From the NCBI GenBank assembly GCA_048885925.1, contig JBHLLG010000022.1, positions 1 to 44,374 of the forward strand: a stretch of DNA of 44,374 bases, read 5' to 3'. The stretch is from Candidatus Hermodarchaeota archaeon (GTDB lineage: Archaea; Asgardarchaeota; Lokiarchaeia; Sigyniarchaeales; SOKP01). The translations under genes were made by a program, and so were the position numbers. Shown piece by piece: positions 1,110-20,987 of the stretch (within the stretch, counting starts at the first letter, position 1; the number at the start of each line of letters is the position of its first letter). The notes under the pieces were generated by a model. It had not been told where the DNA came from. It did no database searches and was given only the letters and a program-made list of their open reading frames with translations.

Positions 1110-2108
1110 ATGGCAAAAAAAAAAGTCCATCCTGATGAAACAAACAGTAAAGAAATTTTTAGACCAGAATCTTCATATTCTTTGAAAGATTTGCCTGGGG
1201 TGGGTGATGCAACTGTAAAAAAATTGATGGAAGCGGGAATTATTTCTATAAGAAATCTTGCGATGTATCCATTGAATAAGTTAATGGATGAAGCAGGTAT
1301 AGGTGAAAAAACAGCTGAAAAAATAATAAAAGTTGCCCAAGATATTGAAAAGATGGGTTTTAAATCAGCTGATAAAATTTGGGAAAAAAGAAAGACTTTA
1401 AATAAATTGACAACAGGTAGTCAGAACTTAGATGATTTATTAATTGGAGGTATAGAACCTGGATCCGTGACAGAACTCTTCGGAGAATATCGAACTGGAA
1501 AGACCCAGATTGTTCATCAATTATGTGTTAATGTACAATTATCGTATGAAGAAGGTGGTCTTGAGGGAAATGCTTTATACATTGATACAGAAGGAACTTT
1601 TAGACCTGAACGATTAATACAAATGGCAGTTGCTAAGGATTTGGATCAGAATGTGGTTTTAAAAAATATTACAGTTGGAAGAGCTTATAATAGTGATCAC
1701 CAAATGTTATTAGTAAAAGAAGCTCCAAAAATCATTGGTGAAAAAAATATTAAATTAGTAATTGTAGATTCCCTAATAGGTCACTTTCGTAGTGAATATA
1801 TTGGGAGAGGAACTTTAGCTGAACGCCAACAACTGATAAATACTCACATTCATGATTTGTTACGATTATCTGAAACTTATGATGAATTAGCTGTTGTTTT
1901 TACAAATCAAGTATCAGCAAAACCAGATGTGTTTTATGGTAATCCTTTAACCCACACTGGAGGACATGTAGTAGCTCATGGAGCAACTATAAGAATTTTC
2001 TTAAGAAAAGGGAAAGGGGAACAACGAATCGCTAAAATTGTGGATGCTCCACATATTCCTGAAAGTGATACAATTTTTTCTATTACAGAAGATGGCATTA
2101 TAGATTAA
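1110..2108 (+). CDS. radA: DNA repair and recombination protein RadA (Rad51 family)
   Basis: N-terminal HhH (DLPGVG, GIGEKTAEKI), FxxA polymerisation motif (GFKSA), Walker A GEYRTGKT, YIDTEGTFRPER, Walker B LVIVDS, TNQV. Confidence 0.95.
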   Translation: MAKKKVHPDETNSKEIFRPESSYSLKDLPGVGDATVKKLMEAGIISIRNLAMYPLNKLMDEAGIGEKTAEKIIKVAQDIEKMGFKSADKIWEKRKTLNKLTTGSQNLDDLLIGGIEPGSVTELFGEYRTGKTQIVHQLCVNVQLSYEEGGLEGNALYIDTEGTFRPERLIQMAVAKDLDQNVVLKNITVGRAYNSDHQMLLVKEAPKIIGEKNIKLVIVDSLIGHFRSEYIGRGTLAERQQLINTHIHDLLRLSETYDELAVVFTNQVSAKPDVFYGNPLTHTGGHVVAHGATIRIFLRKGKGEQRIAKIVDAPHIPESDTIFSITEDGIID

Positions 2109-2154
2109 TTAATTGGATTGTTTATCATTTTTTGATTTATTAAATCAAAAAATA

Positions 2155-2592
2155 TTAATATTCAAGATTTACTTTTAAATCGATTCCTTCTCTTACAGAT
2201 TCAGAGATGATACAATATTGTTCATAAAATTTTTTGCATTGATCTATCCTTTTTAGCATTTGTGGGTTATCAACTTTAGGAATTATTTTAATATCTATTT
2301 TTTTGACCCTCCAAAAGTTCTTCTCATTTCTAGCAATTGTAACTTCAGCTTTTCCTTCCAAATCTGATAAATAAATATCCCTTTTTAATAAACAGAATTC
2401 AAAACTTGCAGTTAAACAACCTAAAATCGATAATGCTAATAATTTTGCTGGAGAAGGTCCCAGTTTTTCTTTTAAATCTTTATTACTTTCATCAATATAT
2501 AAATTGTGTATTTTTATTCCTCCAAGATCGCATTTATATATCATCTCGTCTTCCTGTTTTAAGCTAACCTTGGTCTTTAACTCGTGAGACAT
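2155..2592 (-). CDS. OsmC/Ohr family protein
   Basis: DE...GPSP..LL...GC motif and C-terminal YCIISESV; about 145 aa. Confidence 0.85.
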   Translation of the reverse strand: MSHELKTKVSLKQEDEMIYKCDLGGIKIHNLYIDESNKDLKEKLGPSPAKLLALSILGCLTASFEFCLLKRDIYLSDLEGKAEVTIARNEKNFWRVKKIDIKIIPKVDNPQMLKRIDQCKKFYEQYCIISESVREGIDLKVNLEY

Positions 2593-2669
2593 ATGAAATC
2601 ACTCTTTTTTGTATTTTTATTTTTAGAAAAATTGATTTTTAACTATAAATACATTTTTTAAAAAAAGAA

Positions 2670-3137
2670 TTATAAATTAATATTTACATTTACTTCAATT
2701 CCATTACGTACAGATTGAGTTACGACACAATATTGTTCAAAAAAGCTAATATCATTTTTTACTTGTTTTAAACATTGTTTTGCTCTTTTAAAGGATTCAG
2801 GATCTTCTATTTTAGGTATAATATCAACATCAATCTTTTTAACTCTCCAAAATCCCTTCTCGTTTCTAGCAGTTGTAACCTCCGCATTAGCTTTTAAATC
2901 ATCTATAGCGAAATTTCTTTTTTTTAAACAAAAAATAAAACTTGCACTTAAACATCCTAAAACGCCCAATGCGAGCAACCTTGATGGATTTGGGCCTAAC
3001 ATATCAACTTCTTCATGATGTTCTTCATCAATATAACAATCTTTTACATTCATATTCCCTAAATCACATTTAAAGATCATTTGTGATTCAGTTTTGGCAA
3101 GGATTATGCCTACATTTGTTTTCATTTCATTTGAGAT
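2670..3137 (-). CDS. OsmC/Ohr family protein (paralogue; probable ATC start at 3137, ORF track starts at GTG 3149)
   Basis: GPNPSRLL..GCL..YCVVTQSV. Aligns with 2155..2592 from the first residue if started at ATC (ISNEMKT vs MSHELKT). Confidence 0.85.
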   Translation of the reverse strand: MSNEMKTNVGIILAKTESQMIFKCDLGNMNVKDCYIDEEHHEEVDMLGPNPSRLLALGVLGCLSASFIFCLKKRNFAIDDLKANAEVTTARNEKGFWRVKKIDVDIIPKIEDPESFKRAKQCLKQVKNDISFFEQYCVVTQSVRNGIEVNVNINL

Positions 3138-3178
3138 AAGGATCACCACCTTATAGATAATTAAGGATAATGAAAAGG

Positions 3179-3703
3179 TTATTTATTCGAAGCTATATTT
3201 GTAAAAATTGAAAATAATTTTTCTTTTTTTAATTTATCGTCTCTGACTTCTTGAAGTAATTGATTAATTTTTCTCAATTCAACTTTATAATATTTTAGAT
3301 CTTCCTTAATTTCCGAGTGAATCACAGATAGTTGAATAGAATCATCAATATCACAACTTTTTTTAACAAATTTTAAACATTGATTAATTCTTTCATAAAT
3401 TAGATTATCGTCAAATAGTCTATTAACTATGATATTTATTTGCTTGATTATCCAATCTCCACTTTCAAGTTTTTTAATTTGAAGTTGAACTTCAGGAAAA
3501 TCTAATTCTTCTCTATTATTTCTCAAACATGTGACTAAGCTAGCATTTAAACAATTGACATAAGTTTTATCGTGTATTATTGGAACAGAAATTGACAAAG
3601 AATTAAGCTCCGCTTCACCAACTTCCTCAAGAATACAATTAAATAGATTTTTATCATTTAAATCACAGCTAAAAGTCTTTTCTTCTTCCTGCATATAAAT
3701 CAT
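3179..3703 (-). CDS. Divergent OsmC-fold paralogue with C-terminal helical extension (likely start ATG 3694)
   Basis: Shares FSCDL, CLNASLVTCL, W.IK.I.I and QCLKFVKKSC with the two adjacent OsmC proteins but lacks the GP.P loop. Confidence 0.6.
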   Translation of the reverse strand: MIYMQEEEKTFSCDLNDKNLFNCILEEVGEAELNSLSISVPIIHDKTYVNCLNASLVTCLRNNREELDFPEVQLQIKKLESGDWIIKQINIIVNRLFDDNLIYERINQCLKFVKKSCDIDDSIQLSVIHSEIKEDLKYYKVELRKINQLLQEVRDDKLKKEKLFSIFTNIASNK

Positions 3704-6615: not shown

Positions 6616-7500
6616 TTATTTCATTAATACACATGATAAATAACCAACACAGTAGCCGCTAATATTTCCAGTTCTTTCGGAACTTGTATAATATTTCAAT
6701 AATTTTCCTTTATTTGCATTTAAATTCTTACATATCATCATTAAAGAAGTTATAGTTTGAGGTCCACAAACCGTTGTTTTTGAAGCCGCTTCAAGAGTAT
6801 TTTGTGGCTCACCATTAATAAAAGCATCAATTACTTGTTGATCGCGTTCTTTAAATTTATTTAATTGTTTAGAATCATATACCTCTTTATGTGTCATGTC
6901 AGAAGAGGCAACAATTACTACATCTTTATCATATGATTGAATTGCTTTCGAAACATCATTTGCTAATCTATTTAAGGTATTAAAATCTTTATTGGAAATT
7001 GTTATTGGTATGAATTTAATATCTTTCTCCTGAGCACAATATTTAATAAATGGTAATTGTACTTCGATATTATGTTCTCTTCCAAAAGGAAAACCAATAA
7101 ATGCTGATTCATCTCTTTCTATAATTTCACTATTATCTAGTATTTTTTTAGATAATTTTTCATCAATACTAATATTTCCTAAAGGTGTTTCCCATTCTCC
7201 CTCATCCATTAAACCAATTTTTCCATATCCAATATGATCTGTACCTAAAACTATAACAGTATCCGGAATTCTTTCTTTAAACAAATTTAAATAAGTAAAT
7301 GCTGCACAACATCCAGAATAGACGTATCCTGCATGAGGGGAAACACCACCAATTATAGATCTTTGTTCTAGATTCAAAGTTTTTAGTTCCTCTCCAGGTC
7401 CAAATTCCTTATTGATAAATGATTCTTTTAATATATTGATTAAATCTGGTTTATACCTTGGATAAAAACTACCAGCTACTGCAGCTTTACGAATAACCAT
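6616..7500 (-). CDS. amrB: MEMO1 family protein (AmmeMemoRadiSam system protein B)
   Basis: R.AAVAGSFYP, PHAGYVYSG, EHNIEVQLPF, ASSDMTH, TVCG, VGY motifs. Confidence 0.92.
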   Translation of the reverse strand: MVIRKAAVAGSFYPRYKPDLINILKESFINKEFGPGEELKTLNLEQRSIIGGVSPHAGYVYSGCCAAFTYLNLFKERIPDTVIVLGTDHIGYGKIGLMDEGEWETPLGNISIDEKLSKKILDNSEIIERDESAFIGFPFGREHNIEVQLPFIKYCAQEKDIKFIPITISNKDFNTLNRLANDVSKAIQSYDKDVVIVASSDMTHKEVYDSKQLNKFKERDQQVIDAFINGEPQNTLEAASKTTVCGPQTITSLMMICKNLNANKGKLLKYYTSSERTGNISGYCVGYLSCVLMK

Positions 7501-7585
7501 TTTTTTAACACGAGTAATTTTTTGTTATAATATTAAAATTATTAATATTGAAAATTATATAATATCATCTAATCATTGTAAAATT

Positions 7586-7599
7586 GAAAGATTTATTAA
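7586..7599 (+). promoter_or_regulatory. Putative BRE/TATA promoter of endA (leaderless spacing)
   Basis: GAAAGA-TTTATTAA about 22-29 nt upstream of ATG 7621, no SD. AT-rich background limits certainty. Confidence 0.45.
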
Positions 7600-7620
7600 A
7601 TTATTTTTAATATCTCTTTA

Positions 7621-8217
7621 ATGATGAACCAAGAAAACAACAAACAAATTTCCCTTGAAGATATAGAAGTACCAGATAAAATCCCAGCAAAATTTATAAA
7701 CAATCGAGTTATTGTTTTCAATCCATTGCATGCTTCATATTTATATGTGAAGAAAGGATTCTTTGGTTCGCCATTAGGTATAAATAAACCTAGATTAGAA
7801 TACTTTTCTAAACCAAGCGAGTTATCACTAATCGAAGCTTATTATTTACTAGAAAAGGATGAAATCACTATTTATGATGTAAATGAAAAGAAAAATTTAG
7901 TACCTAAAGAGTTTTATGAGATTGCTAAAAGAATTCATCATAAATTCGAAGAAAAGTATGTTATATACAAGGATTTAAGAGATCGAGGGTATATTCCAAG
8001 ACCGGGTTTAAAGTTTGGAGCAGATTTTGTTATATATCGTCTTGGTCCAGGACTTGAACACTCTCTTTTTATGGTTCATGTTCTGCCCCACGACTCAGAG
8101 ATCTCAGCAGTAGACATGGTAAGAGCTGGACGATTAGCAACATCTGTGAGGAAGAAATTTGTGATTGCCAATCCTCTTACCTGCAGTTATTATTTCTTTG
8201 AGTGGTTTAAACCATAA
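7621..8217 (+). CDS. endA: tRNA-intron (splicing) endonuclease, catalytic subunit
   Basis: LSLIEAYYL, Y..Y.DLR.RGY, GLKFGADFVIY (Tyr), EHS (His), SVRKK (Lys) catalytic triad. Confidence 0.93.
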   Translation: MMNQENNKQISLEDIEVPDKIPAKFINNRVIVFNPLHASYLYVKKGFFGSPLGINKPRLEYFSKPSELSLIEAYYLLEKDEITIYDVNEKKNLVPKEFYEIAKRIHHKFEEKYVIYKDLRDRGYIPRPGLKFGADFVIYRLGPGLEHSLFMVHVLPHDSEISAVDMVRAGRLATSVRKKFVIANPLTCSYYFFEWFKP

Positions 8218-8243
8218 AAAGAAAGTAGATTTCAGAGATACAT

Positions 8244-10067
8244 TTATTTTAATGTTAAAATCCTTAATTTTTGAATTATTTTATCTTTGATTAATTCAAT
8301 TTGTTGAAAATTGTCATTTTCGATAGAGCGACTAATATTTAAAATTTCATTATAAATATCTTGATCCAGTAAATCTTCAATTAAAATTCCTTGGTCTATA
8401 AGATTAATCCCTTCAATATAAATTAAAAGAATAATTTTAATCAAACCTAACATTTTTTTAACACCAGTGAAACTGTCAATGCTATCAAAAGCATTCTGAA
8501 TTAGAAAACCATTTTTAATTAATTTCGAAATGAAAATTACTAGTTGTTGGTCTTCTGGTAAGTTTTTTTCCCCAATTAGTTGAATAATGTATGTCAAATC
8601 TTGTTCTTTGGATAAAATTTCGTTTACTAGTTTTCGACACTCACTCCAATCAAACTCGATTTCTGACCAACTAATATCTTTTTGATTCCACCAATCTGAT
8701 ATCGAAGAAGGATAAGTTGAATAAGAATTCATCCAATTAATGGCAGGATAATGTTTTAAATATGCTAAACTGGAGTCCAAAGCCCAAAAAACTCTTACTA
8801 ATCTCTTTGTTGTTGCTGTTACTGGTTCACTAAAATCCCCCCCAGGTGGTGAAATTGTCCCAACAATTGTTAATGATCCTACTTTTTCTTTTCCTTGATA
8901 ATCTAACCCCATTGTTTTAACAACACCTGCTCTTTCATAAAAGCTTGACAATTTTGATGGTAAATAGGCAGGATATCCTTCTTCTGCAGGCATTTCTTCT
9001 AACAATCCGGAGATTTCCCTTAAAGATTCAGCCCATCTTGATGTACTATCTGCTAAAACAGCAACGTCATAACCCATATCTCGATAATATTCTGCGATGG
9101 TAACTCCAGAAAATAGACTAGCCTCTCTAGCAGAAACAGGCATATTAGAAGTATTAGCTATTAGAATTATATGCTCTATCAAGGGCCTTCCTGTTTTAGG
9201 ATTAGTTAATTCAGAAAATTGATTTAAAATGTTAGCGATTTCATTACCAGGTTCTCCACATCCTATAAATACAATAACATCAACATTGCTCCATTTAGCT
9301 AAAGATTGTTGTATAACTGTTTTTCCTGTTCCGAAACCTCCTGGTACTGCTACAGTACCACCCTTTGCTACTGGAAACAATAAATCTATAGCACGCATTC
9401 CAGTAATTAAAGGAATTGTGGCATTCTCTTTCTTTTTATAAGGACGATTTACTGTGATTGGCCATTTTTGCATCATCGAGAATGAAACTTCTTTTGAATT
9501 TATTTTTAATCTATATAACTCATCCAAAATTGTATAATCCCCTTCTTTTGTGATAAATGATAATCTTCCTGAGGTATATGGATGAATCATAATCTTATGT
9601 TCTAAAAATTGTGTTTCTTGAACAATTCCTATTACATCTCCACCATTAACTTTTTCATTTAGCTTTTTGAGTGGCTGAAAGTGCCATTTTTTTGTTCTAG
9701 ATAAAGGAGGGAATTTTATACCTCGATATAATCTTCCAGAGGTGAGATTCTCAAAAATTATTTCTAATGGCCTCTGCATTCCATCAAAAACATGGGATAT
9801 TAAACCAGGAGCTAATTCCATTGAAAGAGGTTCTTTTAAATTAATAACTTCTTCATTCAATTTTATATTTATAGTATTTTCGAAAGATTGTGCTATTATA
9901 TGATCTGAATATATTTGGATTACTTCTCCTAGTATTTCATGATCTGATATTTTTATTAGATCATGGAGGCGAACATGACCTTCTAATCCTTTAATTTCGA
10001 GAAGTGATCCATTAATTCCTGAAATATAACCATAAGGAATTTCTTCATCAAACTTTAGTGAATTCAT
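8244..10067 (-). CDS. atpA: A/V-type ATPase subunit A paralogue (A'), GER motif altered to GEP
   Basis: Full length and colinear with 15406..17250. GGFGTGKT, ANTSNMPV.AREAS, DSTSRWAE, PAEEGYPAYL present, but GCGEPGNE. Confidence 0.92.
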   Translation of the reverse strand: MNSLKFDEEIPYGYISGINGSLLEIKGLEGHVRLHDLIKISDHEILGEVIQIYSDHIIAQSFENTINIKLNEEVINLKEPLSMELAPGLISHVFDGMQRPLEIIFENLTSGRLYRGIKFPPLSRTKKWHFQPLKKLNEKVNGGDVIGIVQETQFLEHKIMIHPYTSGRLSFITKEGDYTILDELYRLKINSKEVSFSMMQKWPITVNRPYKKKENATIPLITGMRAIDLLFPVAKGGTVAVPGGFGTGKTVIQQSLAKWSNVDVIVFIGCGEPGNEIANILNQFSELTNPKTGRPLIEHIILIANTSNMPVSAREASLFSGVTIAEYYRDMGYDVAVLADSTSRWAESLREISGLLEEMPAEEGYPAYLPSKLSSFYERAGVVKTMGLDYQGKEKVGSLTIVGTISPPGGDFSEPVTATTKRLVRVFWALDSSLAYLKHYPAINWMNSYSTYPSSISDWWNQKDISWSEIEFDWSECRKLVNEILSKEQDLTYIIQLIGEKNLPEDQQLVIFISKLIKNGFLIQNAFDSIDSFTGVKKMLGLIKIILLIYIEGINLIDQGILIEDLLDQDIYNEILNISRSIENDNFQQIELIKDKIIQKLRILTLK

Positions 10068-10092
10068 TTAATTTCCTCTAAATTTTAGTTAA

Positions 10093-10533
10093 TTAATATT
10101 TTAATTGTGCATTACAGAATGGACATTTTTTAACGAAGTTTGGTATAATATTTCCACAATTTTCACATTTATTAATTATTGGTCTGCGATATTTGAGATC
10201 GAGATTAATAGATTTTGGAATTTTCGGTTGGACTTCATGCATTTCTTCTTCCTCTTGAATAGCGATAACTTTCTTTTGATAATTTAGTGTGGCTTTTCTT
10301 TTTCTATTTGGAAACATCCTTGAATAAAGAGATTTTTTATTTTTCCTCAGAAAGGGACTAATAGAGATTAAAAATATGAAAATCAATAATATTATCGTGA
10401 TAAAAGGATGAGCGCCAAATTGAATGAAAAGAAAATAGAAATAAACCATTATACAAACATAACTTATTAATACTATTAATCGAAAAATTAACCGTTTGCG
10501 ACTGTTATCCTTTTCATTTATTTCATTTGACAT
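10093..10533 (-). CDS. Two-TM membrane protein with C-terminal zinc ribbon
   Basis: Two hydrophobic helices, basic linker, CENC-x10-CPFC. Confidence 0.75.
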   Translation of the reverse strand: MSNEINEKDNSRKRLIFRLIVLISYVCIMVYFYFLFIQFGAHPFITIILLIFIFLISISPFLRKNKKSLYSRMFPNRKRKATLNYQKKVIAIQEEEEMHEVQPKIPKSINLDLKYRRPIINKCENCGNIIPNFVKKCPFCNAQLKY

Positions 10534-10576
10534 GAAAAAAACTATTATTTTATGATATTAAATACACTTGAATAAG

Positions 10577-10616
10577 TATTCGAATCTTTTTCTTATATAT
10601 CGCTTAGCTTTATCTA
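10577..10616. repeat. 40-bp imperfect direct repeat of the atpI 3' end (other copy 11066..11105)
   Basis: tattcgaatctttttcttatatatcgcttagctttatcta vs tattcgaatctttttgttatatagttcttagccttatcta; 35/40 identical by manual alignment. Confidence 0.8.
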
Positions 10617-10792
10617 AAATCAATTATTTATGTTTATAATTATAAGAATACAAATATATTGAATTTTAAAAAGAAAAAAAAGATACTTAAAGATTATGGT
10701 TTTCTTTCATAAAATCTTTAAAATGGTTGAGTTGACTCTCTTTACAAATTGCTGAACCAAATTCACTTTAATTCTCAATTATTTGATATTTG

Positions 10793-10826
10793 AAACCCTC
10801 CAAATGAAGCGGTTTTGTGAGGGTTT
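10793..10826. other. Intergenic stem-loop
   Basis: AAACCCTC-CAAA-(TGAAGCGGT)-TTTG-T-GAGGGTTT: 8+4 bp stem with a 1-nt bulge. Confidence 0.5.
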
Positions 10827-11064
10827 AGTCCTAATAGATTTATATACATAAGTATCTGTATATTTCAATAAAAATTTCATAAAAAAAGTTTTTATAAATT
10901 TAGGCAAATACTTTAGGTATTTAAGCTTATTATCTATAAAACTCAAAACTACAAGCGATTTGTGAAATGTGATATATATATGGTTTCTCGTATACTAATT
11001 GTAGTAGGCATTTTTGAAGATTTTTATCTTCCTTATAATTAATTCTAAATTTTTCTAATTTAAT

Positions 11065-13356
11065 TTATTCGAATCTTTTTGTTATATAGTTCTTAGCCTT
11101 ATCTATTTGTTCTTTTATTATTCTTGTTTCAAATTCTTTTTCGATTTCCTCTGAAATAATGTCTTTTTCAATCGCACCTCTAAAATTAATAGACGAATAA
11201 TTATTATCCAGAAAAAAGGGAAAATAATCTTGGCCAGATCCTTGATAAAACTTGAAGAAAAATTCATAAAAATGGAGACGTAGAGAATTGAGAAATACTA
11301 GTAATCCTTCTAAGAGAATTACAATTAAATTCCCAAAAATCGAACCAATAAAAGATATTATCTCTACTCCAAAACCTTCTCCTTGGATCAATGAAGACAT
11401 GGCATTTATAGAGTATAACAATGCAATATGAGCTAATGCCAAGGCTAATAATCGAATGTAAGATGCAACATTGCTCATAACTGATAAAACTGTATCAAAT
11501 GCTTCAATCGATCCTTCACCTAATAATCCACCAATAGTTTCTTTTCTTAAGTATGAAATTTTTAGTGTTTTTCCAAGAGGTTTCAAAAACAATAATAGAA
11601 GCCCTGGGATCAGAACTAATAAGATTGGATATGGAAATGCCATCCAAGTATATATATCAAACCCATAACCAAATATCAAAATAGTTCCGCCTATTAATAA
11701 TAAAATTTTCATAAATGAATCGCTAAATGCTAAATATTTCCTATGTTGTTTCCAATAATTTAAAAATTGTATGAACCAACCTAAATTTATATGAAAAACT
11801 CCAATTAATACGGCAAAATAAAATACAGAAAGGATATTACCTAATGGATTATATAGTGTAATATTGAAAAGAGGGATTGTTACTGGTTCCAAATGGAAAT
11901 AGACTGTTCCAAATATCTCGATTTCATGCTTTCCAAAAAATTCCCCATATAAGAAACCAACAAGTACAGAGGCCCATCCACAAAGAAAGATGATCCAACT
12001 TAGATTTACAACATTTTTACTACGCTTTCTTAATACAATAGCTCCTATCAATCCCGCTAGAATTAAAACTAATCCATGACCTATATCACCAAACATTAAA
12101 CCAAAAAGTAATGGAAATGTGATTGCGATAATAGGAGTAGGATCTATTTCAGAATATGTAGGTGTCCCGTACATTCTTGTGATAGTTTCGAATGGTCTTA
12201 CAAGAAAGAAATTTTTCATGATCGTGGGAGTTTTTTCTCTTAGATCTTCTTTTTCTGTATCGGATTCATTTGATTCAACTTCTTCAATGCTAAGCTCTTT
12301 TAAGGGTTTGACACTTTTTTTTATTATTTTTCCTTTTTCCGATAAAGATGATTCATAACTGGGTCGATTTTTTGACACATCTTGTGTCTCAATTGTTATA
12401 TTTTCTTTAAAGATTTTAAATAAATTCTGTTTAACTTCTTCCTTTTTAGATAAAGGAACAAAAAATTTAAGTAATAATCGATTTAAAGGTAGCCGTTCAA
12501 ATTGTTGTTCAACCCAATTATATTCCTCAATATTTTGAACAATTTCATTAATACCAGCAAATTTTAAGAGATTTTCTTTAGCAATTCGATTTTGTTCTTT
12601 CTTATATCTTGATATTAAATCTTCAATAAATTTAATTTCCTTATCTATTCTTAAAAGATTGATTCCTTCACTTGTCAAATATTTTTTTAAAATTGGAACT
12701 TCTTCAGAATGTAATAAACGAATTCTTCCGTTGAATTCATCCTGCTTATCTTTGGGATAGAATATATAAAAACCTATTCTGTCATCAGATATTTCAAATG
12801 TATCATAAAAATTTGGGAATTCTGAAAATTCAAAAAGATTTTGTAAATTAGGTAAATTCTTAGAAAATGTAGTAAAAACTCGCAAATTAAAGTTTCTCAG
12901 TTTTTCTAAATTTTCTGTATTTAATTCTATTTTTTTTAAAATTTTATAACTTTCTTTTATAATCTTAAGATTTTCTAACTCAATTTTGCCTTTTGATATA
13001 TATTTATTTAATTCTATTGCTCTATTTATATAGAAATCTACTTCTTCGAGAAGATTGTTTATTAATTCATATAAATCTTTAGCTATGAATTCAATTCTTT
13101 CATTCTTATCAATTTTTAAATTTCGAACGTCGTATTCACTAATTTCAAGTCTTTTAAATAAGTTATTTAAATTTTTCCTCAAATCTTTAATTTTTTGTCT
13201 AAACGGGTCTTTTTCGTCTAATTCTTTATCGTATTTAGGCTTTTTCTTCGATTTTATATGAACTATATTCATATTTGATAATTCTATTAGAAACTGATCT
13301 CTATAGCTCTGACTTATTTCTGCTTTCATCAAACAAAACTCGTCTTTTTTTGTCAT
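11065..13356 (-). CDS. atpI: A/V-type ATPase subunit I (a)
   Basis: TPT..N..PFE.IT.MYG.P.Y.EIDPT, FGLMFGDIGHG, SYIRLLAL.LAH (essential Arg), LRLHFYEFF.KFY. Confidence 0.95.
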   Translation of the reverse strand: MTKKDEFCLMKAEISQSYRDQFLIELSNMNIVHIKSKKKPKYDKELDEKDPFRQKIKDLRKNLNNLFKRLEISEYDVRNLKIDKNERIEFIAKDLYELINNLLEEVDFYINRAIELNKYISKGKIELENLKIIKESYKILKKIELNTENLEKLRNFNLRVFTTFSKNLPNLQNLFEFSEFPNFYDTFEISDDRIGFYIFYPKDKQDEFNGRIRLLHSEEVPILKKYLTSEGINLLRIDKEIKFIEDLISRYKKEQNRIAKENLLKFAGINEIVQNIEEYNWVEQQFERLPLNRLLLKFFVPLSKKEEVKQNLFKIFKENITIETQDVSKNRPSYESSLSEKGKIIKKSVKPLKELSIEEVESNESDTEKEDLREKTPTIMKNFFLVRPFETITRMYGTPTYSEIDPTPIIAITFPLLFGLMFGDIGHGLVLILAGLIGAIVLRKRSKNVVNLSWIIFLCGWASVLVGFLYGEFFGKHEIEIFGTVYFHLEPVTIPLFNITLYNPLGNILSVFYFAVLIGVFHINLGWFIQFLNYWKQHRKYLAFSDSFMKILLLIGGTILIFGYGFDIYTWMAFPYPILLVLIPGLLLLFLKPLGKTLKISYLRKETIGGLLGEGSIEAFDTVLSVMSNVASYIRLLALALAHIALLYSINAMSSLIQGEGFGVEIISFIGSIFGNLIVILLEGLLVFLNSLRLHFYEFFFKFYQGSGQDYFPFFLDNNYSSINFRGAIEKDIISEEIEKEFETRIIKEQIDKAKNYITKRFE

Positions 13357-13378
13357 ATCTTTAAACTCAATTAATTCT

Positions 13379-14014
13379 TTATTTTTTAATAATTATATCT
13401 TTGGTTTTTTTCAATCTAATGTAATTTTCCCTTTCAATTTCTTCCAAAATCTCTTTAATTTTTTTAATATTTAACTTTAACTTGGGAATTATTAAATTTT
13501 TTAAACCATTTATCCTACGATTGATCTTTTTAAAATTTATTGCATGTTTTAATAATAAATCTTCTATTTCAGAAAATTGGATTAAAGAATTAAAAAAATC
13601 CTTTAAAGTATAAATTAAATCATCCAGATAATGACTTGTGTTCTCAAACGTATACGCAGGAAGCTTCTCTTCTTGAATTAATTCGTATTTAATCTGAGGA
13701 AATAAAATACCTGCCTTTTTTAGATGAAAAATTTCAATTTTAGGTTTGAATTGAATTCTACTTAATTTACTTACCAAAACGAGTTCATTCTTACCCATCT
13801 CTTCATAGGTTAAATGAAGAATTTTCATTGTCTCCTTGAATAAAGAAAGAAATTCTTTTCTTTTTGAAATAAAATCTTTCCATAATTTTCGAAGCTGAAA
13901 AATTAATTGCTCTCTTCTGAATTCTAGAAAGCTTTCTCCTTTAACTGCAAAAGCTAATCTTTTCTGCAAAGAAATTAAATTTGATTTTGATGGTTTTATC
14001 TCTCTAAAACTTAT
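13379..14014 (-). CDS. atpD: A/V-type ATPase subunit D (probable ATA start at 14014; ORF track starts at TTG 13969)
   Basis: C-terminal RRINGL.N.IIP.L...I...LEE.ERE...RLKK. Upstream in-frame extension gives SFREIKPSKSNLISLQKRL, matching the conserved KPT..L..LK.RL N-terminus. Confidence 0.9.
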   Translation of the reverse strand: MSFREIKPSKSNLISLQKRLAFAVKGESFLEFRREQLIFQLRKLWKDFISKRKEFLSLFKETMKILHLTYEEMGKNELVLVSKLSRIQFKPKIEIFHLKKAGILFPQIKYELIQEEKLPAYTFENTSHYLDDLIYTLKDFFNSLIQFSEIEDLLLKHAINFKKINRRINGLKNLIIPKLKLNIKKIKEILEEIERENYIRLKKTKDIIIKK

Positions 14015-14017
14015 AAT

Positions 14018-15409
14018 CTACACCTTTACTTGAAAGTATTTGTCAATATACTTCTGATGAATTCTGATTAATTGGTTTTGATTTAAATTAGATAATAATT
14101 CCCAGGCGATATCAAGAGATTCTTTAAAACTTCTATTCTCATCTTCTTTTTGGTTTAAGAATCTTTGTTCAAAACCATTTCCGAATTTTAATATATTCTT
14201 TTGTTCGAAATTCAGTCCATCTTCTCCTACAATTGAAATAAGATCTTTAACTTCAATGTACTCAGAATAGGAAGCCAGTAACTGTGAACTAATATCAGCA
14301 TGATCCTCTCTTGTTTTCCCTTTTCCAATTGCATCCTTCATTAACCTTGAAATCGAGGCTAAGGATTCAAAAGGGGGATAAATACCTTTCTTATGTACCA
14401 TACGACTAAGAACTAATTGTCCTTCTGTGATATACCCTGTAGTGTCAGGTACAGGATCAGTGATATCATCATTTTTCATTGTGAGTATCGGAATTTGGGT
14501 AATAGAGCCTTTTTTTCCTTTAATCTTTCCTGTCCTTTCATAAATTGATGCAAAATCTGAATAAATATAACCAGGATACCCCTTCCTACTTGGGATCTCT
14601 TCTTTCGCAGAACTCAGCTCCCTTAATGCTTCTGCATAATTTGTCATATCAATTAAAACAACAAGGACATGCATATCTTTTTCGAAAGCAAAGTATTCTG
14701 CTGTTGTTAAAGCCACTCGAGGAATTAATAGTCGTTCAATTATTGGATCATCAGCAAAATTGATAAAAGAAATGATATTTTGAAGTGTTCCACTTTCTTG
14801 AAACCGGTTTATAAAGTAAATTGCCTCATCTTGGATAATTCCAATACCACAAAAAATTATTATAAATGGTTCATCTGAAGCAACTTTTGCTTGGGTTGTT
14901 ATTTGAGCAGCTAATTTGTTATGGGGTAATCCCTGTGCACTGAAAATAGGAAGCTTTTGACCCCTGATTAATGTAAATAATCCATCAATTACAGATATAC
15001 CTGTTTGTATAACATCAATGGGATATTCTCTAGCAAAAGGATTGATAGGACTCCCATTTATATCTCTGTGAACATCCGTTAAAACATCTGAATCTAAAAC
15101 TGTTTTTGTTTTGATATCAAATGGAATTCCTAATGAATTGAATGTTTGACCGAACATATCATTTGAGATCTTTACTTTAAAAGTATCTTCAGTAAATTTT
15201 ATTTCAGCATTCTCAGAGGATATTCCCGTTGTATCCTCAAATACTTCAACAACAATTATGTCCTCACTTAGTTTTACAACTTGGCCAGTACGTAATTTAT
15301 TATCATTTGTTTTAATTCTTACTATTTCACCATATTGAGCATTATGCTCATTTTTAAGAAATAAGAGTGGTCCGATGATTTGTTGAATTTTTTTATATAT
15401 TACACTCAT
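14018..15409 (-). CDS. atpB: A/V-type ATPase subunit B
   Basis: GQKLPIFS..GLPHN.LAAQI, DMTNYAEALRE, KGYPGY.Y.D..SIYER.G, PD.TGYITEGQ, SRLMK. Confidence 0.96.
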   Translation of the reverse strand: MSVIYKKIQQIIGPLLFLKNEHNAQYGEIVRIKTNDNKLRTGQVVKLSEDIIVVEVFEDTTGISSENAEIKFTEDTFKVKISNDMFGQTFNSLGIPFDIKTKTVLDSDVLTDVHRDINGSPINPFAREYPIDVIQTGISVIDGLFTLIRGQKLPIFSAQGLPHNKLAAQITTQAKVASDEPFIIIFCGIGIIQDEAIYFINRFQESGTLQNIISFINFADDPIIERLLIPRVALTTAEYFAFEKDMHVLVVLIDMTNYAEALRELSSAKEEIPSRKGYPGYIYSDFASIYERTGKIKGKKGSITQIPILTMKNDDITDPVPDTTGYITEGQLVLSRMVHKKGIYPPFESLASISRLMKDAIGKGKTREDHADISSQLLASYSEYIEVKDLISIVGEDGLNFEQKNILKFGNGFEQRFLNQKEDENRSFKESLDIAWELLSNLNQNQLIRIHQKYIDKYFQVKV

Positions 15410-17250
15410 AATTTTTTAAATGTTTCATGGGTTAATTTTAAGGATGCAATTTCATTAAGTAATTTCTTTTTTAACCCTTCTATTCTATCAAAATCTTTAT
15501 TGGGAATAGTATGGTTAATTCTTAAAATATTAGTAATACTTCTAAGATTTTTAATATCTTCAATTAAAAATCCTTGTTTTAAAAGTTCATTACCTTCTTT
15601 ATATAAAAGAAGAATTATTTTAATCATTCCTAAAAGTTTTTTAAAATCTGTATAATTATCAATATCATCAAATGCATTTTGGATTAAAAATCCGTCTTTA
15701 ATTAATCTTGCAATAAATATTGTTAATTGTTGGTCTTCAGGTAGATTTTCCTCACCGATAAGTTGTGTAATGTACTTTAATTCATTTTCTTGGGATAATA
15801 TTTCATTAACTTGCATTCGGCATTCAAACCAATCAATATCTATTTCTGACCAATGAATGTCTCTTTTGAACCACCATTCTAATATATAATCCGGGTAATT
15901 GGAATATGAATTCAACCAATTAATAGCGGGATAATGTTTTGAATATGCCAATCCAGCGTCTAAAGCCCAAATTCCTTGAACGAAATTTTTAGTTGTTGCT
16001 GTTACAGGTTCACTAAAATCACCAGCAGGAGGAGAAACTGACCCTATTACTGTTAATGAACCAATTCTTTCTTTTCCAAATTCATCTTCTCCAAACAATT
16101 TAACAATACCTGCTCTTTCGTAAAAACTAGATAGCTTTGAAGGTAAATATGCAGGATATCCCTCTTCAGCGGGCATTTCTTCTAATAGTCCAGAAATTTC
16201 CCTTAAAGATTCTGCCCATCTTGAAGTACTATCCGCTAAGACAGCAACATCATAACCCATATCCCTGTAGTATTCGGCAATGGTTACTCCCGAAAAAATA
16301 CTAGCTTCTCTTGCGGAAACTGGCATGTTTGAAGTATTTGCGATTAGAATAATCCGATCTAACAAAGATTGACCTGTTTTAGGATCTATTAACTCTGAGA
16401 ATTGTTTCAAAACATCAGCTATTTCATTTCCTCGTTCTCCACAACCAACAAAAACAATTACATCAGCATTACACCATTTCGCCAAAGATTGCTGGATAAC
16501 AGTTTTTCCTGTTCCAAATCCTCCCGGAACTCCAATTGTACCTCCTTTAGTAATAGGAAATAGTAAATCTATAACTCGTATCCCTGTTATTAATGGTTCA
16601 TTGGGAATTTTTCTCTCCTTAAAAGGTCGTGCTTTAGTTATTGGCCATTTTTGTAACATTGAAAAGGAATTTTCTTTATTATCTCTTTTCAATTTATAGA
16701 TTGTGTCAATAATTGTATAATCTCCTTCATCCACAATGAAATTCAATGTTCCCGTAGTATTTGGAGGAACTAATATTTTATGTTTTATCGCAGGAGTTTC
16801 TTGAACAGTGCCAATTATATCTCCTCCATTTACTAAATCACTCTTTTTTTTTTCAGGAATGAAGTGCCATTTTTTTGTTCTTGATAAAGAATCTATTTCT
16901 AAACCTCTTTCTAATCCTCCAGTTTTGAAAAGATCAAAAGCTTTTTGTAAAGGTCTTTGAATTCCATCAAAAATGTTTCCTAATAATCCCGGTGCTAATT
17001 CCATAGAGAGAGGTTCATTTAAGCTAATAACTTCTTCGTTAATACGTAAATTGTCAGTATTTTCAAAACATTGAACAACCACATAATCCTCATAAATTTG
17101 AATAACTTCTCCTAAAATCTTATATTTAGTAATTTTAATTAAATCATGGAGTTTAATTGTTTCTTCAAGTCCTTTAACATTAATTAAAGACCCGTTTATA
17201 GCTGAAATGTAACCATATTGGGAAATGGTCTTAGAACTGGATTTGCTCAT
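15406..17250 (-). CDS. atpA: A/V-type ATPase catalytic subunit A
   Basis: GGFGTGKT, intact GCGERGNE, DSTSRWAE, PAEEGYPAYL, GDFSEPVT; ATGA overlap with subunit B. Confidence 0.97.
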   Translation of the reverse strand: MSKSSSKTISQYGYISAINGSLINVKGLEETIKLHDLIKITKYKILGEVIQIYEDYVVVQCFENTDNLRINEEVISLNEPLSMELAPGLLGNIFDGIQRPLQKAFDLFKTGGLERGLEIDSLSRTKKWHFIPEKKKSDLVNGGDIIGTVQETPAIKHKILVPPNTTGTLNFIVDEGDYTIIDTIYKLKRDNKENSFSMLQKWPITKARPFKERKIPNEPLITGIRVIDLLFPITKGGTIGVPGGFGTGKTVIQQSLAKWCNADVIVFVGCGERGNEIADVLKQFSELIDPKTGQSLLDRIILIANTSNMPVSAREASIFSGVTIAEYYRDMGYDVAVLADSTSRWAESLREISGLLEEMPAEEGYPAYLPSKLSSFYERAGIVKLFGEDEFGKERIGSLTVIGSVSPPAGDFSEPVTATTKNFVQGIWALDAGLAYSKHYPAINWLNSYSNYPDYILEWWFKRDIHWSEIDIDWFECRMQVNEILSQENELKYITQLIGEENLPEDQQLTIFIARLIKDGFLIQNAFDDIDNYTDFKKLLGMIKIILLLYKEGNELLKQGFLIEDIKNLRSITNILRINHTIPNKDFDRIEGLKKKLLNEIASLKLTHETFKKL

Positions 17251-17959
17251 ATAATCTTAAATATTCTGGTATTTTTTCTTTTTGATTTCGTATAAATTTT
17301 TCAAATTCTTTTTCTATTTCCTTAATTTCGGAATCGTTAATTATTTTAGAGATCTCCATCTCAATAAATGAAGATTTTTTATTAATTATATTATCTATTG
17401 TGTAATCATAAAAGATAATTCCTTCTACAAGTGAAATCTTAAAACCTCCTATAAATTCAGACTTAGTTTGATTTATTTCAACTGGATTCTTAAAAATTCC
17501 TGCTATTTGGTCAAAATTTTCAATAAAGTAATTATAATCCTTAGAATTTAATATTAATTCAATTCCTTGAGGTTTATCTATATCTTTTTTGACTTTTTTA
17601 ATTGATTCCAATAGAAAAGTAATATAACCTGAATAATTTTTTTCAATTTTCTCTCTAATTAGATTAACTATACTGGTTTTTAACTCCTTTATTAAATTAT
17701 TTTTTAACTTTAAAAATCTTTCTTTCTCCTTTAAAAGGGTTGATGATAATGATTGATTTAAATATTGGACATAACTTTCAATAAGATGATTTTTTAATTT
17801 TACCGATCTTTCACGGCTTCGTTCTAAATATCTATTCTTAATTTCAGCTTTCTGAAATAAGGTTTTTTGATTCAATTCTTTGACTTCTTTTTCAGCTTTC
17901 TCTATTAAGTAAAGTCCTAAATTACTGATTTTTTTTTTAATCTCTTTTTCTTCGGATAT
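17231..17959 (-). CDS. atpE: A/V-type ATPase subunit E (probable ATA start at 17959; ORF track starts at TTG 17875)
   Basis: Long N-terminal helix, C-terminal L..KD...IGGF.I....I.YD.TI domain, position between F and A. GAGGTGA SD 6 nt before ATA TCC GAA GAA. Confidence 0.82.
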   Translation of the reverse strand: MSEEKEIKKKISNLGLYLIEKAEKEVKELNQKTLFQKAEIKNRYLERSRERSVKLKNHLIESYVQYLNQSLSSTLLKEKERFLKLKNNLIKELKTSIVNLIREKIEKNYSGYITFLLESIKKVKKDIDKPQGIELILNSKDYNYFIENFDQIAGIFKNPVEINQTKSEFIGGFKISLVEGIIFYDYTIDNIINKKSSFIEMEISKIINDSEIKEIEKEFEKFIRNQKEKIPEYLRLYEQIQF

Positions 17960-17973
17960 TTTGATTCACCTCA

Positions 17974-18297
17974 TTAAATTACGATTATACCACCTATTGC
18001 ATCAATGATTTTATTTAAAATGATATCATAATTCTCTATATTTGGTTGAGAAATGTCTGGTAAAATAAAAACAAATGGAATTCTAACATTTTGTTTAAAA
18101 TCCAATAAAAAGTCAATCATCCCATTTGATAAACGTAAAGCTACAATTATCATGCCAATTGAAAAATCATTTTTTAACTCCGTAAACTTTTTTAGGAATT
18201 CTTCTTCATTTCTTACTATAGAACTTTCTAATCCTAAAAGTCCTAACATGGATACAATTTCTTCTTCGCCTAAAATGTGAATTTTTTGATCTACCAT
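17974..18297 (-). CDS. atpF: A/V-type ATPase subunit F
   Basis: KIHILGEEEIVSMLGLLG N-terminus, P.V..LP, C-terminal I..AIG; 107 aa; operon position. Confidence 0.85.
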   Translation of the reverse strand: MVDQKIHILGEEEIVSMLGLLGLESSIVRNEEEFLKKFTELKNDFSIGMIIVALRLSNGMIDFLLDFKQNVRIPFVFILPDISQPNIENYDIILNKIIDAIGGIIVI

Positions 18298-18608
18298 TAA
18301 AAATCAATTCCTAACTCTTTAATAATTACTTTTTGTAATTTTGGTATATTTTTTTTAAATCCAACTTCAATATTTTTAAGACTTTTATCTAAATTTTTTT
18401 CAAAAGTATTAGTTTGAGTGTCAATAGCTACTGCTAAATTACCCAAAGCAGTATTCACGAGAACATTTATTGTAGTAACAAAATTTTCAAATTTAGTGTC
18501 TTGCTCTTGTCGAAAGTCTTCAATTTCTTTCAAATTTACATTCTTAGAATTTTCTATTAATTCGTCATATACTTTTTGAATTTCATCTATCCATTCGAAT
18601 ATATCCAT
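18297..18608 (-). CDS. Probable A/V-type ATPase peripheral-stalk subunit H/G
   Basis: 103-aa all-helical charged protein inside the operon (TAATG coupling to F); the only otherwise missing subunit. Assigned by size and context. Confidence 0.6.
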   Translation of the reverse strand: MDIFEWIDEIQKVYDELIENSKNVNLKEIEDFRQEQDTKFENFVTTINVLVNTALGNLAVAIDTQTNTFEKNLDKSLKNIEVGFKKNIPKLQKVIIKELGIDF

Positions 18609-18654
18609 TTTTTAACCAAGTTGTGATTAATTTTCATTTATTCCAACAATCTCT

Positions 18655-19707
18655 TTATTTCAATCTTTTATATTTCTCATCAAGAATCTCAACTACTTTT
18701 GGTAAAATATATAAATGTATTTCTTTATCTTTCTTGATTAATACTTCAAGAATCTTAAAAATTGCTTGATAATCAACATCTTCAATTTTAATCTCTAATT
18801 TTTTGAAAAAGTATTCTAAATATAATTTCTCAATTGACCATATCAAATGGTTTTTATCAAGGTTATATTTTGATAAAATTAATTTAATTTCTTTCGTTTT
18901 AATTAAATATTGATTAATATTTAAAATAAAATCATTACTATTTGTAAGATCCAATAATTTTAAGATATCTTTTTTATCGAAAAATAAATAAGTGTCTATT
19001 AAAAACTGTGATAATAATTTTCTATCAATATTATTTTTGATTCCCCTATAAATCATATTTAAATTGTAGATTTCTGATATATATTTCAAATAAGGTGTAA
19101 TTATATTTCTTTCCTTTAAACCTAATTTTGAAATTTCATTTTTTAAATTTTCATAATAAAATTGATCAAGAAAAGCCTCAAGTACGAAGATTTCGTTGGT
19201 GTTTTTAAAATATAAAATACCTTCTCTTATTACTCTGTTATATTTTGTTGCTTTCATATGGAATTGTATTTCTTCTAAAGAAGATGTTTCAATCAATTCA
19301 TTTATGAATTCAGTATTGTTCAAATATTCTTCTACTAATTTATTAACTAATAATGATTTATCTGCAATGCTCATCCCTAGTATAGTGCCCAGAATAATAC
19401 GTTTAATATTCATTATTTCATACTTTATCAAATAATTTTTCAAAAAAATACGCATATTTGTTGGAGAAATATATAAAATCTTTCCAATCAACTTAATATA
19501 AGTATGAAATAACTCTCTTTCAATTTCCTCTATAGTATAAGAAGTAAGACTAAGTCCTGGATAATATTTACTAATAAATTCAATAAATTGTTTTATTTCA
19601 TTTATTTCTTCTAATTTTTTTAACGTAATCTCATCCATTATTAATTGTTTTAAAAAACCAATCCGGATAAGGGTAAAAGCATAATTATCAACAATCACGC
19701 TGCTCGT
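18655..19707 (-). CDS. atpC: A/V-type ATPase subunit C (d) (possible ACG start at 19707; ORF track GTG 19698)
   Basis: YA...RI..LK..., YEI.NIK.II, LE..LD..YY, EI.NL...YRG motifs; about 350 aa. Confidence 0.88.
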   Translation of the reverse strand, partial: TSSVIVDNYAFTLIRIGFLKQLIMDEITLKKLEEINEIKQFIEFISKYYPGLSLTSYTIEEIERELFHTYIKLIGKILYISPTNMRIFLKNYLIKYEIMNIKRIILGTILGMSIADKSLLVNKLVEEYLNNTEFINELIETSSLEEIQFHMKATKYNRVIREGILYFKNTNEIFVLEAFLDQFYYENLKNEISKLGLKERNIITPYLKYISEIYNLNMIYRGIKNNIDRKLLSQFLIDTYLFFDKKDILKLLDLTNSNDFILNINQYLIKTKEIKLILSKYNLDKNHLIWSIEKLYLEYFFKKLEIKIEDVDYQAIFKILEVLIKKDKEIHLYILPKVVEILDEKYKRLK

Positions 19708-19762
19708 TACATATTCACCAATAAATCAACTTTAGATTTGGATAAATAATTAAAAAGTTTTC

Positions 19763-20128
19763 TTAAACTGGGGTTGGTATTTTAGTCCAAAGTAAGATTG
19801 CAATGATCAATCCGTAAACTGCTAATGCTTCACATAGTGCAACAACGAGAAATGCTTTAAAGAATGCCTCTTCACGTTCTGAGAGTGCACTTATTGCAGC
19901 TGTTCCAACAGTTTTTATAGCCCAAGCACTTCCTAAAACCGACGCACTGACGGAAATTGCTACTCCAAAAGCTAAAGCTATAGTAGTAGGGGAGTTATAA
20001 TAATCAAATGTTGAAGGAACTTGAGCAGCTACGAAAGAAATAATTCCATTAGATGTAAAAATCACTAAAATTATCAAGAAAACTTGAAATGATACGAGTA
20101 AAAAATAAAATTTTTGTTTACCGTTCAT
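19763..20128 (-). CDS. atpK: A/V-type ATPase proteolipid subunit K (c), single hairpin with extra N-terminal hydrophobic segment
   Basis: GSAWAI..VG.AAI.A..E hairpin and ALCEALAVYGLIIAILL with the ion-binding Glu. Confidence 0.92.
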   Translation of the reverse strand: MNGKQKFYFLLVSFQVFLIILVIFTSNGIISFVAAQVPSTFDYYNSPTTIALAFGVAISVSASVLGSAWAIKTVGTAAISALSEREEAFFKAFLVVALCEALAVYGLIIAILLWTKIPTPV

Positions 20129-20351
20129 ATATCTTACAACCTATGTCTTTATTTAAAAAATTATATTTTTAAATGAGTAAAATAAATTTTTGCGTATAAA
20201 TCTTCTTATTATAATCTGTAAATTAACAGTTATTCTCTTTATTAGAAAAATAAGAATAGATATGAACCAATTAAAATTTAAGAAATTTTATAATTAAAAT
20301 AATAAAATAGAGTACTTGAAATTATAGATTTCAATAACAATTTAGCTCAAT

Positions 20352-20987
20352 TTATTGATAAAGTAAAACCCTAATAAGATCGGCGACATCATGTATAGAA
20401 TCTGCAAGATTCTCAAGTAAAATTATGCTATCTCTTAATCTTAAGAGCAACCTTATTTCTAATTCTTCATTAGAATATAAATATTCAAGGAATTGACGAT
20501 AATTAGCATCTACTTCATTTTCTATCTCATGAATTATGGTTGTATTTTTAAATACTACATCTGGTTTATCTCTAAGGCTTTTAATTGTTGATTTTAAAAC
20601 ATCAGTCATTTTTATTGTATTATTAATTAATTTTTCATATTGCTTTTTTATCTCTTCACTTTTTATCCCATTTAAATTGATTTTCGATAGCATATCTACA
20701 AATTCAAGGGGTAAATTACATAAATTATCCATTTTTAAAATCAATGCAACAAAATCGCCTAAACCTGCTCCTGATTCAGAATAATTTTGGATTAATTGAA
20801 TTTTAATTGCATCTGCATCTTCTTCTGATAATTGCATTTTACTCTTTTTTTTCTCAAGAGAAGTTTTATTTTTCTCATAATTTTCTGCCCATCTATTATA
20901 AAATACACCCATATTACTCACAATAGAGTAAAGTATTCTGGAATGCTCTATTAACATCGATATTATTTCGTCTTTCAATTTGTTCAT
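20352..20987 (-). CDS. DUF47/PhoU-like phosphate-transport regulator
   Basis: Two repeats of E..AD/E.EVD plus D...(MDNL) and LENLAD...D helical pattern. Confidence 0.8.
   Translation of the reverse strand: MNKLKDEIISMLIEHSRILYSIVSNMGVFYNRWAENYEKNKTSLEKKKSKMQLSEEDADAIKIQLIQNYSESGAGLGDFVALILKMDNLCNLPLEFVDMLSKINLNGIKSEEIKKQYEKLINNTIKMTDVLKSTIKSLRDKPDVVFKNTTIIHEIENEVDANYRQFLEYLYSNEELEIRLLLRLRDSIILLENLADSIHDVADLIRVLLYQ

Follow-up and report, generated by a model that had tools for sequence, protein, structure and literature searches.

A conserved second subunit A of the rotary ATPase in one family of Lokiarchaeia, with proline in place of the phosphate-binding arginine

The stretch of DNA analysed here, referred to throughout as the window, comprises 44,374 nucleotides (nt) of contig JBHLLG010000022.1 from Candidatus Hermodarchaeota archaeon (assembly GCA_048885925.1), a member of the Lokiarchaeia, and carries the genes of an A/V-type rotary ATPase. 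We find that it encodes, beside the normal catalytic subunit A of this enzyme, a second full-length subunit A, designated A', in which the arginine that directly follows the catalytic glutamate is replaced by proline. A' is a selected, maintained paralogue under purifying selection; as judged from gene trees and from its distribution, it appears to be the product of a duplication within a single lokiarchaeial family, with a gene tree unlike that of a simple single early duplication. We hold with moderate confidence that A' binds nucleotide and joins subunit B in the head of the motor, where its site would hardly turn over and the motor would be modulated as a result. The two genes and the codons in question, with lengths in amino acids (aa), are as follows.

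8244-10067, minus strand: A', a further subunit A gene of full length (607 aa, GEP instead of GER; open reading frame (ORF) and translation)
15406-17250, minus strand: operon subunit A (614 aa, GERGNE; ORF and Pfam)
9318-9341, minus strand: Walker A motif (P-loop) of A', residues 243-250, GGFGTGKT, intact (computed from the start at 10067)
9249-9251, minus strand: Pro273 codon CCT of A', at the position of the phosphate-binding arginine of GER
9114-9116, minus strand: Leu318 codon of A' (Ile in every A), four residues past Arg314 of SAREAS
8757-8759, minus strand: Leu437 codon of A' (A has Ser or Ala), three residues ahead of Tyr440 of HYPAINW

A and A' lie on the same strand, separated by 5.3 kb, and a pairwise alignment gives 67% identity (401/595 residues) with 0 gaps; the A' frame contains zero internal stops over its 607 aa. 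Residue 273 is Arg in A, encoded by CGA at 16434-16432, and Pro in A', encoded by CCT at 9251-9249, where the codons TGT GGA GAA CCT GGT AAT GAA at 9260-9240 specify CGEPGNE, within the GCGEPGNE region that reads GCGERGNE in A. Common to both proteins are the Walker A motif GGFGTGKT, Glu272, the Walker B stretch VLADSTSRWAESLRE and a W-rich segment. An initial annotation of the window had described two colinear, full-length subunit A genes about 5 kb apart, the two codons at residue 273, and Walker A, catalytic Glu, Walker B and the W-rich segment in both copies with no frameshift; each of these sequence statements is correct.

The Pfam domains PF02874, PF16886, PF00006 and PF22919 all score above cut-off in A', and the same four are carried by A; their order in A' is an N-terminal beta-barrel, the A-specific barrel-sandwich insert, the nucleotide-binding domain and the V/A C-terminal domain. 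The best solved relative is subunit A of P. horikoshii (3M4Y/1VDZ), matched over residues 13-577 with E = 1.7e-181, and since A' is about 50% identical to solved A subunits, its fold is clear. The match to subunit B is weak (E = 1.1e-14, 33% over residues 220-443), with the P-loop and the Glu retained in A', and A' clusters with the A copies in trees rather than as an orthologue of non-catalytic B or alpha.

We searched 40 related genomes for second copies and took A'-type sequences from the genus of the window (n = 20). GEP is found in 20/20 of these A' orthologues and GER in 31/31 other copies, namely operon A and outgroups. Position 273 of the 20 A' genes uses all four proline codons (CCT 13, CCA 5, CCC 1, CCG 1), and a database search reveals GEP in 110 of the best 120 clusters, the remaining 10 being GER copies; a few variants of the motif occur among these best 120 clusters (CCGEPGSE, GEPDNE). 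Two objections raised in the initial annotation, that GEP might be unique to this assembly or might be a read error, thus fall away, as the same change is present in the orthologues and in the database clusters, with synonymous turnover of the Pro codon.

A'-type database proteins carry mixed source labels (Loki-, Prometh-, Thor-, Odin- and Hod-archaeota), and every A'-bearing genome examined belongs, in the genome grouping used here, to a single family of Lokiarchaeia, f1. A scan of the class finds a CGEPGNE coding pattern once per genome in 79/160 genomes, all 79 of them in f1, where 7/13 genera have it, and 0/26 in the other families, with a reversed control of 0. Among genomes of the phylum that are at least 90% complete, the pattern occurs exactly once in 56/188, corresponding to 56/88 in f1 and 0/100 across 22 other families (reversed control, 0). 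These counts are minimum values, since the pattern misses variants of the motif such as GEPGSE in genome G232. A separate GEPGSE-coding pattern matches 2/399 genomes: the match in G232 is a genuine A' variant, and that in G169, of family f2, lies outside any A homologue and is probably due to chance. Within the genus of the window, a search of G016 (98% complete) with subunit A as query, at E up to 0.001, finds homologues of neither A nor B; either the assembly has missed the operon or the genome is without the ATPase.

Selection on A' was gauged with the ratio of nonsynonymous to synonymous substitution (dN/dS, NG86 method). When genome pairs are ranked by the dS that separates their A copies, the lowest 25 give ratios of 0.09-0.20 (A') and 0.08-0.20 (A), and dN(A')/dN(A) has a median of 1.24 and a range of 0.79-2.10 (153 pairs, 18 genomes). 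Resolved by domain over 15 genomes, three with fragmentary copies having been left out, the A'/A ratio of p-distances is 1.23 for the N-terminal barrel, 1.06 for the bulge, 1.40 for the nucleotide-binding domain and 1.35 for the C-terminal domain. A' is thus nearly as constrained as A. Conservation of GEP with dN/dS < 1, the check proposed at the outset, is thus what we observe, and neutral evolution of A', which would have told against the proposal of the initial annotation, does not hold.

At the level of the genus, only five differences are fixed between A and A': R213K, R273P, D279N, I318L and S437L. Residue 318 is Leu in 20/20 A' and Ile in 31/31 GER copies, and residue 437 is Leu in 19/20 A' and Gln in the other one. 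The A' copies of genus g12 are likewise Leu at both sites and retain the A-like R213 and D279, so that P273, L318 and L437 are the only universal markers of A'. The catalytic framework around them is kept: K249, E272 and the Walker B Asp D340 (VLAD) are present in 20/20 A', as is the P-loop GGFGTGK[T/S], with Ser (T250S) in 2/20 and GTGKS in the g17 copies. Certain sites that are invariant in A are loosened in A' (T342I in 7/20, W428L in 5/20, N444 variable), and the arginine directly after the catalytic Glu, a hallmark of subunit A, is Pro in 20/20.

The three universal markers can be set against known active-site residues. Arg314 of SAREAS is presumably the counterpart of the second inorganic phosphate (Pi)-binding arginine of F1 beta, and Tyr440 would be the adenine-stacking aromatic, matching F425 of E. 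hirae if a four-residue insertion is allowed. Given their proximity to the GER arginine site, to Arg314 and to Tyr440, respectively, P273, L318 and L437 would all lie in the nucleotide or phosphate pocket. The E. hirae enzyme provides a point of reference: the available text of PMC6371843 assigns 238 to the P-loop Lys, 261 to the catalytic Glu and 262 to the phosphate-contacting Arg, and A-R262 touches the terminal phosphate and adjoins E261, which initiates hydrolysis. The spacing from Lys to Glu is 23 residues in A' (K249 and E272, followed by P273), as in E. hirae. For E. coli F1, the accessible part of PMC3268026 reports that beta-R182Q and beta-R182K abolish ATP synthesis, leave low ATPase activity and eliminate Pi binding, and that MgADP binding is independent of R182.

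Phylogenetic analysis was used to probe the origin of A'. A tree of the genus sample (51 rows) resolves A' as a single clade, with a Shimodaira-Hasegawa-like approximate likelihood ratio test (SH-aLRT) support of 99 and internal branching that mirrors that of A; in a tree with more genera (46 rows), A' occupies one side of a branch with support of 60, nested among the A copies of f1. A topology that unites all 16 operon A copies in one clade fails the approximately unbiased (AU) test (p = 4e-5, lnL difference 62, LG+G4), and a single early duplication followed by vertical descent was accordingly discarded. Genome G174 (locus L074, G174:C41:17000-28700; locus positions 1655-3484 for A and 8309-10114 for A') accounts for part of this conflict: its two copies are 82% identical to each other, versus 67% between its A' and other A', and dS between A and A' is 0.47, compared to 1.24 in the genome of the window, a sign of concerted evolution or gene conversion. 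P273, L318 and L437 persist in the A' of G174 despite this homogenisation. The within-lineage duplication proposed in the initial annotation is borne out, in that A' groups with A copies and is found in f1 only; of the phylogeny that it called for, the single A' clade stands in the genus sample, but support drops to 60 with more genera and the single-duplication topology is lost.

The genomic setting of A' bears on its possible partners. The further features of the ATPase row, in order of transcription, are listed below.

20352-20987, minus strand: PhoU_div/DUF47-family gene, directly upstream of the ATPase row
17231-20128, minus strand: upstream operon block, from K/c to the 214-aa ORF (relatives with the same order)
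19763-20128, minus strand: subunit K/c (Pfam)
18655-19698, minus strand: subunit C (Pfam)
18297-18608, minus strand: 103-aa ORF, H-like by position and size only (below Pfam cut-off)
17974-18297, minus strand: subunit F (Pfam)
17231-17875, minus strand: 214-aa ORF, E-like by position and size only (below Pfam cut-off)
14018-15409, minus strand: subunit B, the sole non-catalytic head subunit of the genome (Pfam)
13379-13969, minus strand: subunit D, central stalk (PF01813, E = 7.1e-30)
11065-13356, minus strand: subunit I, membrane stator (PF01496, E = 6.7e-39)
10577-11105: 489-bp window-specific insertion in the gap that follows subunit I, ahead of the small ORF, with a 40-nt direct repeat at its ends
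10093-10533, minus strand: 146-aa ORF (the small ORF) with two membrane helices, an LYSRMFP motif and a C-terminal CxxC...CxxC zinc ribbon (no Pfam hit)

Homologues of the head subunits number only three in the whole genome (95% complete), A', A and B, and it follows that there is one rotary ATPase and one B. The row A-B-D-I-small ORF-A' is kept among relatives, usually with A' as its last gene and with a gap of about 30-60 nt between I and the small ORF. Downstream of A' are a tRNA-intron endonuclease (EndA) gene and a Memo-like gene, and the order I-small ORF-A'-EndA-Memo recurs in all A' loci examined of genera g1, g12, g19, g21 and g22. In G006 (L053/L054, a single contig) the row is split, with E-A-B-D lying about 860 kb from I-small ORF-A'-EndA-Memo. 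In genus g17, the A' genes of L075 (G190:C8) and L082 (G189:C35), with CCGEPGNE, stand alone amid unrelated genes with no ATPase gene within about 8 kb. In G012 (L055, G012:C2, locus 12293-13382) an oppositely oriented ORF of 349 aa occupies the slot of A', and tblastn at E up to 10 detects no remnant of A' there. The PhoU_div/DUF47-family gene is found at the same place in G012 and G007, and weakly in G037.

In all A' loci examined, a homologue of the 146-aa ORF separates I from A', and throughout this family the ORF comes directly after subunit I. Two genomes have it at loci that lack A': G012 carries the small ORF, and G037, which belongs to another family, carries a 171-aa version with two ribbons. 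It is therefore older than A', and we rejected it as an A'-specific partner. This membrane protein may be an undescribed accessory of Lokiarchaeial ATPases. The repeats that bound the insertion upstream of it, 10577-10616 and 11066-11105, are 88% identical at a spacing of 489 and duplicate the 3' end of the I gene; a repeated mobile element was considered and rejected, there being no second full copy in the genome. The interval 10068-10092, between the small ORF and A', has a ribosome-binding motif resembling GAGG some 8 nt ahead of the A' ATG, and most other genes of the row have no such motif within 35 nt upstream. Four metatranscriptome contig sets compared with 7500-20300 at 80% likeness give 16 records (9+1+2+4), of which the pieces shown are short (18-52 nt) and mostly less than 90% alike. 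As a separate observation on subunit A, four genomes encode it in one frame of about 1140-1160 aa (G206:C71:88192-91599, G185:C188:30124-33525, G277:C5:42187-45594 and G033:C65:18573-21905), with the two halves of A split near residue 250-265 by some 500 extra residues, probably an intein near the classical site before CGERGNE.

From the behaviour of arginine mutants in other enzymes and from the position of A' in the operon, we infer that A' binds nucleotide, has lost turnover and enters the head. In the mechanism that we favour, A' would pair with B and occupy one or more of the A positions of the A3B3 head; its site would bind nucleotide yet be unable to hold Pi or the transition state, making turnover very slow or nil. 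A head containing A' would have fewer working sites, such that ATP-driven reverse rotation would be slowed or blocked, in line with the brake on ATP wastage that the initial annotation proposed, and possibly fewer ATP would be made per turn, at a higher ion-to-ATP ratio. A more elaborate version, which we put forward as doubtful, is that mixed heads with one or two A' serve as a gear change combined with a one-way ratchet. Under the ion gradient, rotation would then pass the idle A' freely, yielding fewer ATP per turn and costing more ions per ATP; synthesis would become possible at a lower membrane potential, and ATP-driven reverse rotation would stall at the A' site. Were this so, energy-starved cells would tune the ion-to-ATP ratio through the head and not the c-ring, in a manner not previously described, and A' would be a living replay of the first origin of non-catalytic head subunits.

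Several observations weigh against a non-catalytic A' in the head. A' is dispensable, as G012 (99% complete) keeps the locus intact with another gene in the A' slot; the genomes checked of genera g16 and g23 have one GER copy; and A' lies away from the operon in genus g17. Constraint on A' is weakest in its nucleotide-binding and C-terminal domains (1.40 and 1.35), the invariant sites of the latter falling from 34 in A to 16 in A', a pattern that could alternatively reflect looser coupling to the rotor. We also take the GER arginine to be the equivalent of E. coli beta-R182, and the mutants at the equivalent arginine are Gln or Lys, none of them Pro. One of these, beta-R182K, retains some ATPase activity, according to the available text of PMC3268026.

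The conservation and linkage that underlie a mixed head are equally those expected of separate heads built of A' throughout (A'3B3), placed on the same stalks and membrane part as a resting or plugging form that would hold the rotor or stop ion leak when energy is scarce. One B and one set of stalk genes would serve such heads too, and the ribosome-binding motif of A', together with the 489-bp insertion that sets it off from the operon here, would make separate control possible. The sequence does not discriminate mixed from pure heads, however, and the short gap of about 30-60 nt between I and the small ORF in most relatives suggests co-transcription with A; we regard pure A' heads as unlikely.

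That A' is instead a competent enzyme of altered chemistry, with a different nucleotide or phosphate preference or with rates tuned through P273, L318 and L437, strikes us as rather improbable. A purely structural subunit would not need the P-loop, catalytic Glu and Walker B that are retained in 20/20 A', the specific fixation of Leu at 318 and 437 looks more like re-tuning than decay, and beta-R182K has residual ATPase activity (PMC3268026, as far as the text is available). Proline, however, offers phosphate neither charge nor hydrogen bond, the fixed changes (K, P, N, L and L) include no new basic residue, and T342, W428 and N444, sites invariant in A, are loosened.

A' might also work away from the ATPase, for instance by sensing nucleotide, helping the head to assemble or partnering another protein; its place in the operon would then be a relic of tandem duplication. 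We hold this distinctly improbable. It would suit the solitary A' genes of g17 and the loss or replacement of A' in some lineages while the ATPase stays. All four domains are nevertheless constrained nearly as in A, including the N-terminal barrel (1.23) and the bulge (1.06), for which we know of no role outside the complex, and the position after subunit I is kept in five genera. We attach practically no credence to A' being an artefact of sequencing or assembly, or a pseudogene in decay: the frame is open at full length, 20/20 orthologues and 110 of the best 120 clusters share the change, the Pro codon shows synonymous turnover, and dN/dS is about 0.1-0.2.

To our knowledge, all known rotary ATPase heads consist of one catalytic and one non-catalytic type of subunit, a split that predates the last universal common ancestor. 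A' would be a recently arisen third type of head subunit, long kept in an Asgard family, from which the phosphate-gripping Arg has been removed. If it does enter the head, A' offers a natural system for the transition from catalytic to non-catalytic subunit, and a model both for rings with fewer than three working sites and for regulating or re-gearing ATP synthesis near the energetic limit of life. A literature search, with supplements outside its reach, returned no description of a second subunit A in Asgard archaea, and the available portions of PMC10656485 and of the preprint 10.64898/2026.10.01.756066 make no mention of an A' paralogue.

A' is best compared with subunit A of the A/V-type enzymes (AtpA/NtpA; 1VDZ/3M4Y, T. 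thermophilus 3A5C/7VAI, E. hirae 3VR2), with which it is colinear over its full length (E = 1.7e-181 to 1e-159) and shares the four Pfam domains, the barrel-sandwich insert, the P-loop, the catalytic Glu and Walker B; the differences are Pro for the Arg of GER(G)NE, Leu for Ile318 and for Ser/Ala437, and its place as a second copy beside a normal A. The beta-R182Q and the beta-R182K mutants of E. coli lose what we assume to be the same phosphate-binding arginine, but they are engineered F-type enzymes in which all three sites are mutated, and to Gln or Lys rather than Pro. Hydrolysis by rotary ATPases is restrained by protein brakes, namely bacterial epsilon, the zeta subunit of Paracoccus and mitochondrial IF1. 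These share with A' a possible common outcome, less wasteful ATP hydrolysis, but they are small inhibitors that jam the rotor or head, whereas A' would be a built-in defective subunit of the motor itself; epsilon, for one, blocks hydrolytic rotation, as stated in the accessible part of 10.64898/2026.10.01.756066.

Subunits B (A/V-type) and alpha (F-type) are, like A', paralogues of the catalytic subunit that are without catalysis and still selected, presumably in the ring in the case of A', and they set an ancient precedent for the role proposed for it; the duplication history of head subunits is treated in PMC10656485, in the portion available. The B encoded here is without the canonical P-loop, Glu and Arg (GIGIIQDE) and gives a partial match of about 33% to A', whereas A' has lost only the Arg, is young and is limited to one family. 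Although artificial, altered at another residue and slowed rather than deficient in phosphate binding, the hybrid F1 with a single slow beta(E190D), a mixed ring with one impaired catalytic subunit that still serves in rotation assays (PMC2755722, available text), is a laboratory analogue of a mixed A/A' head.

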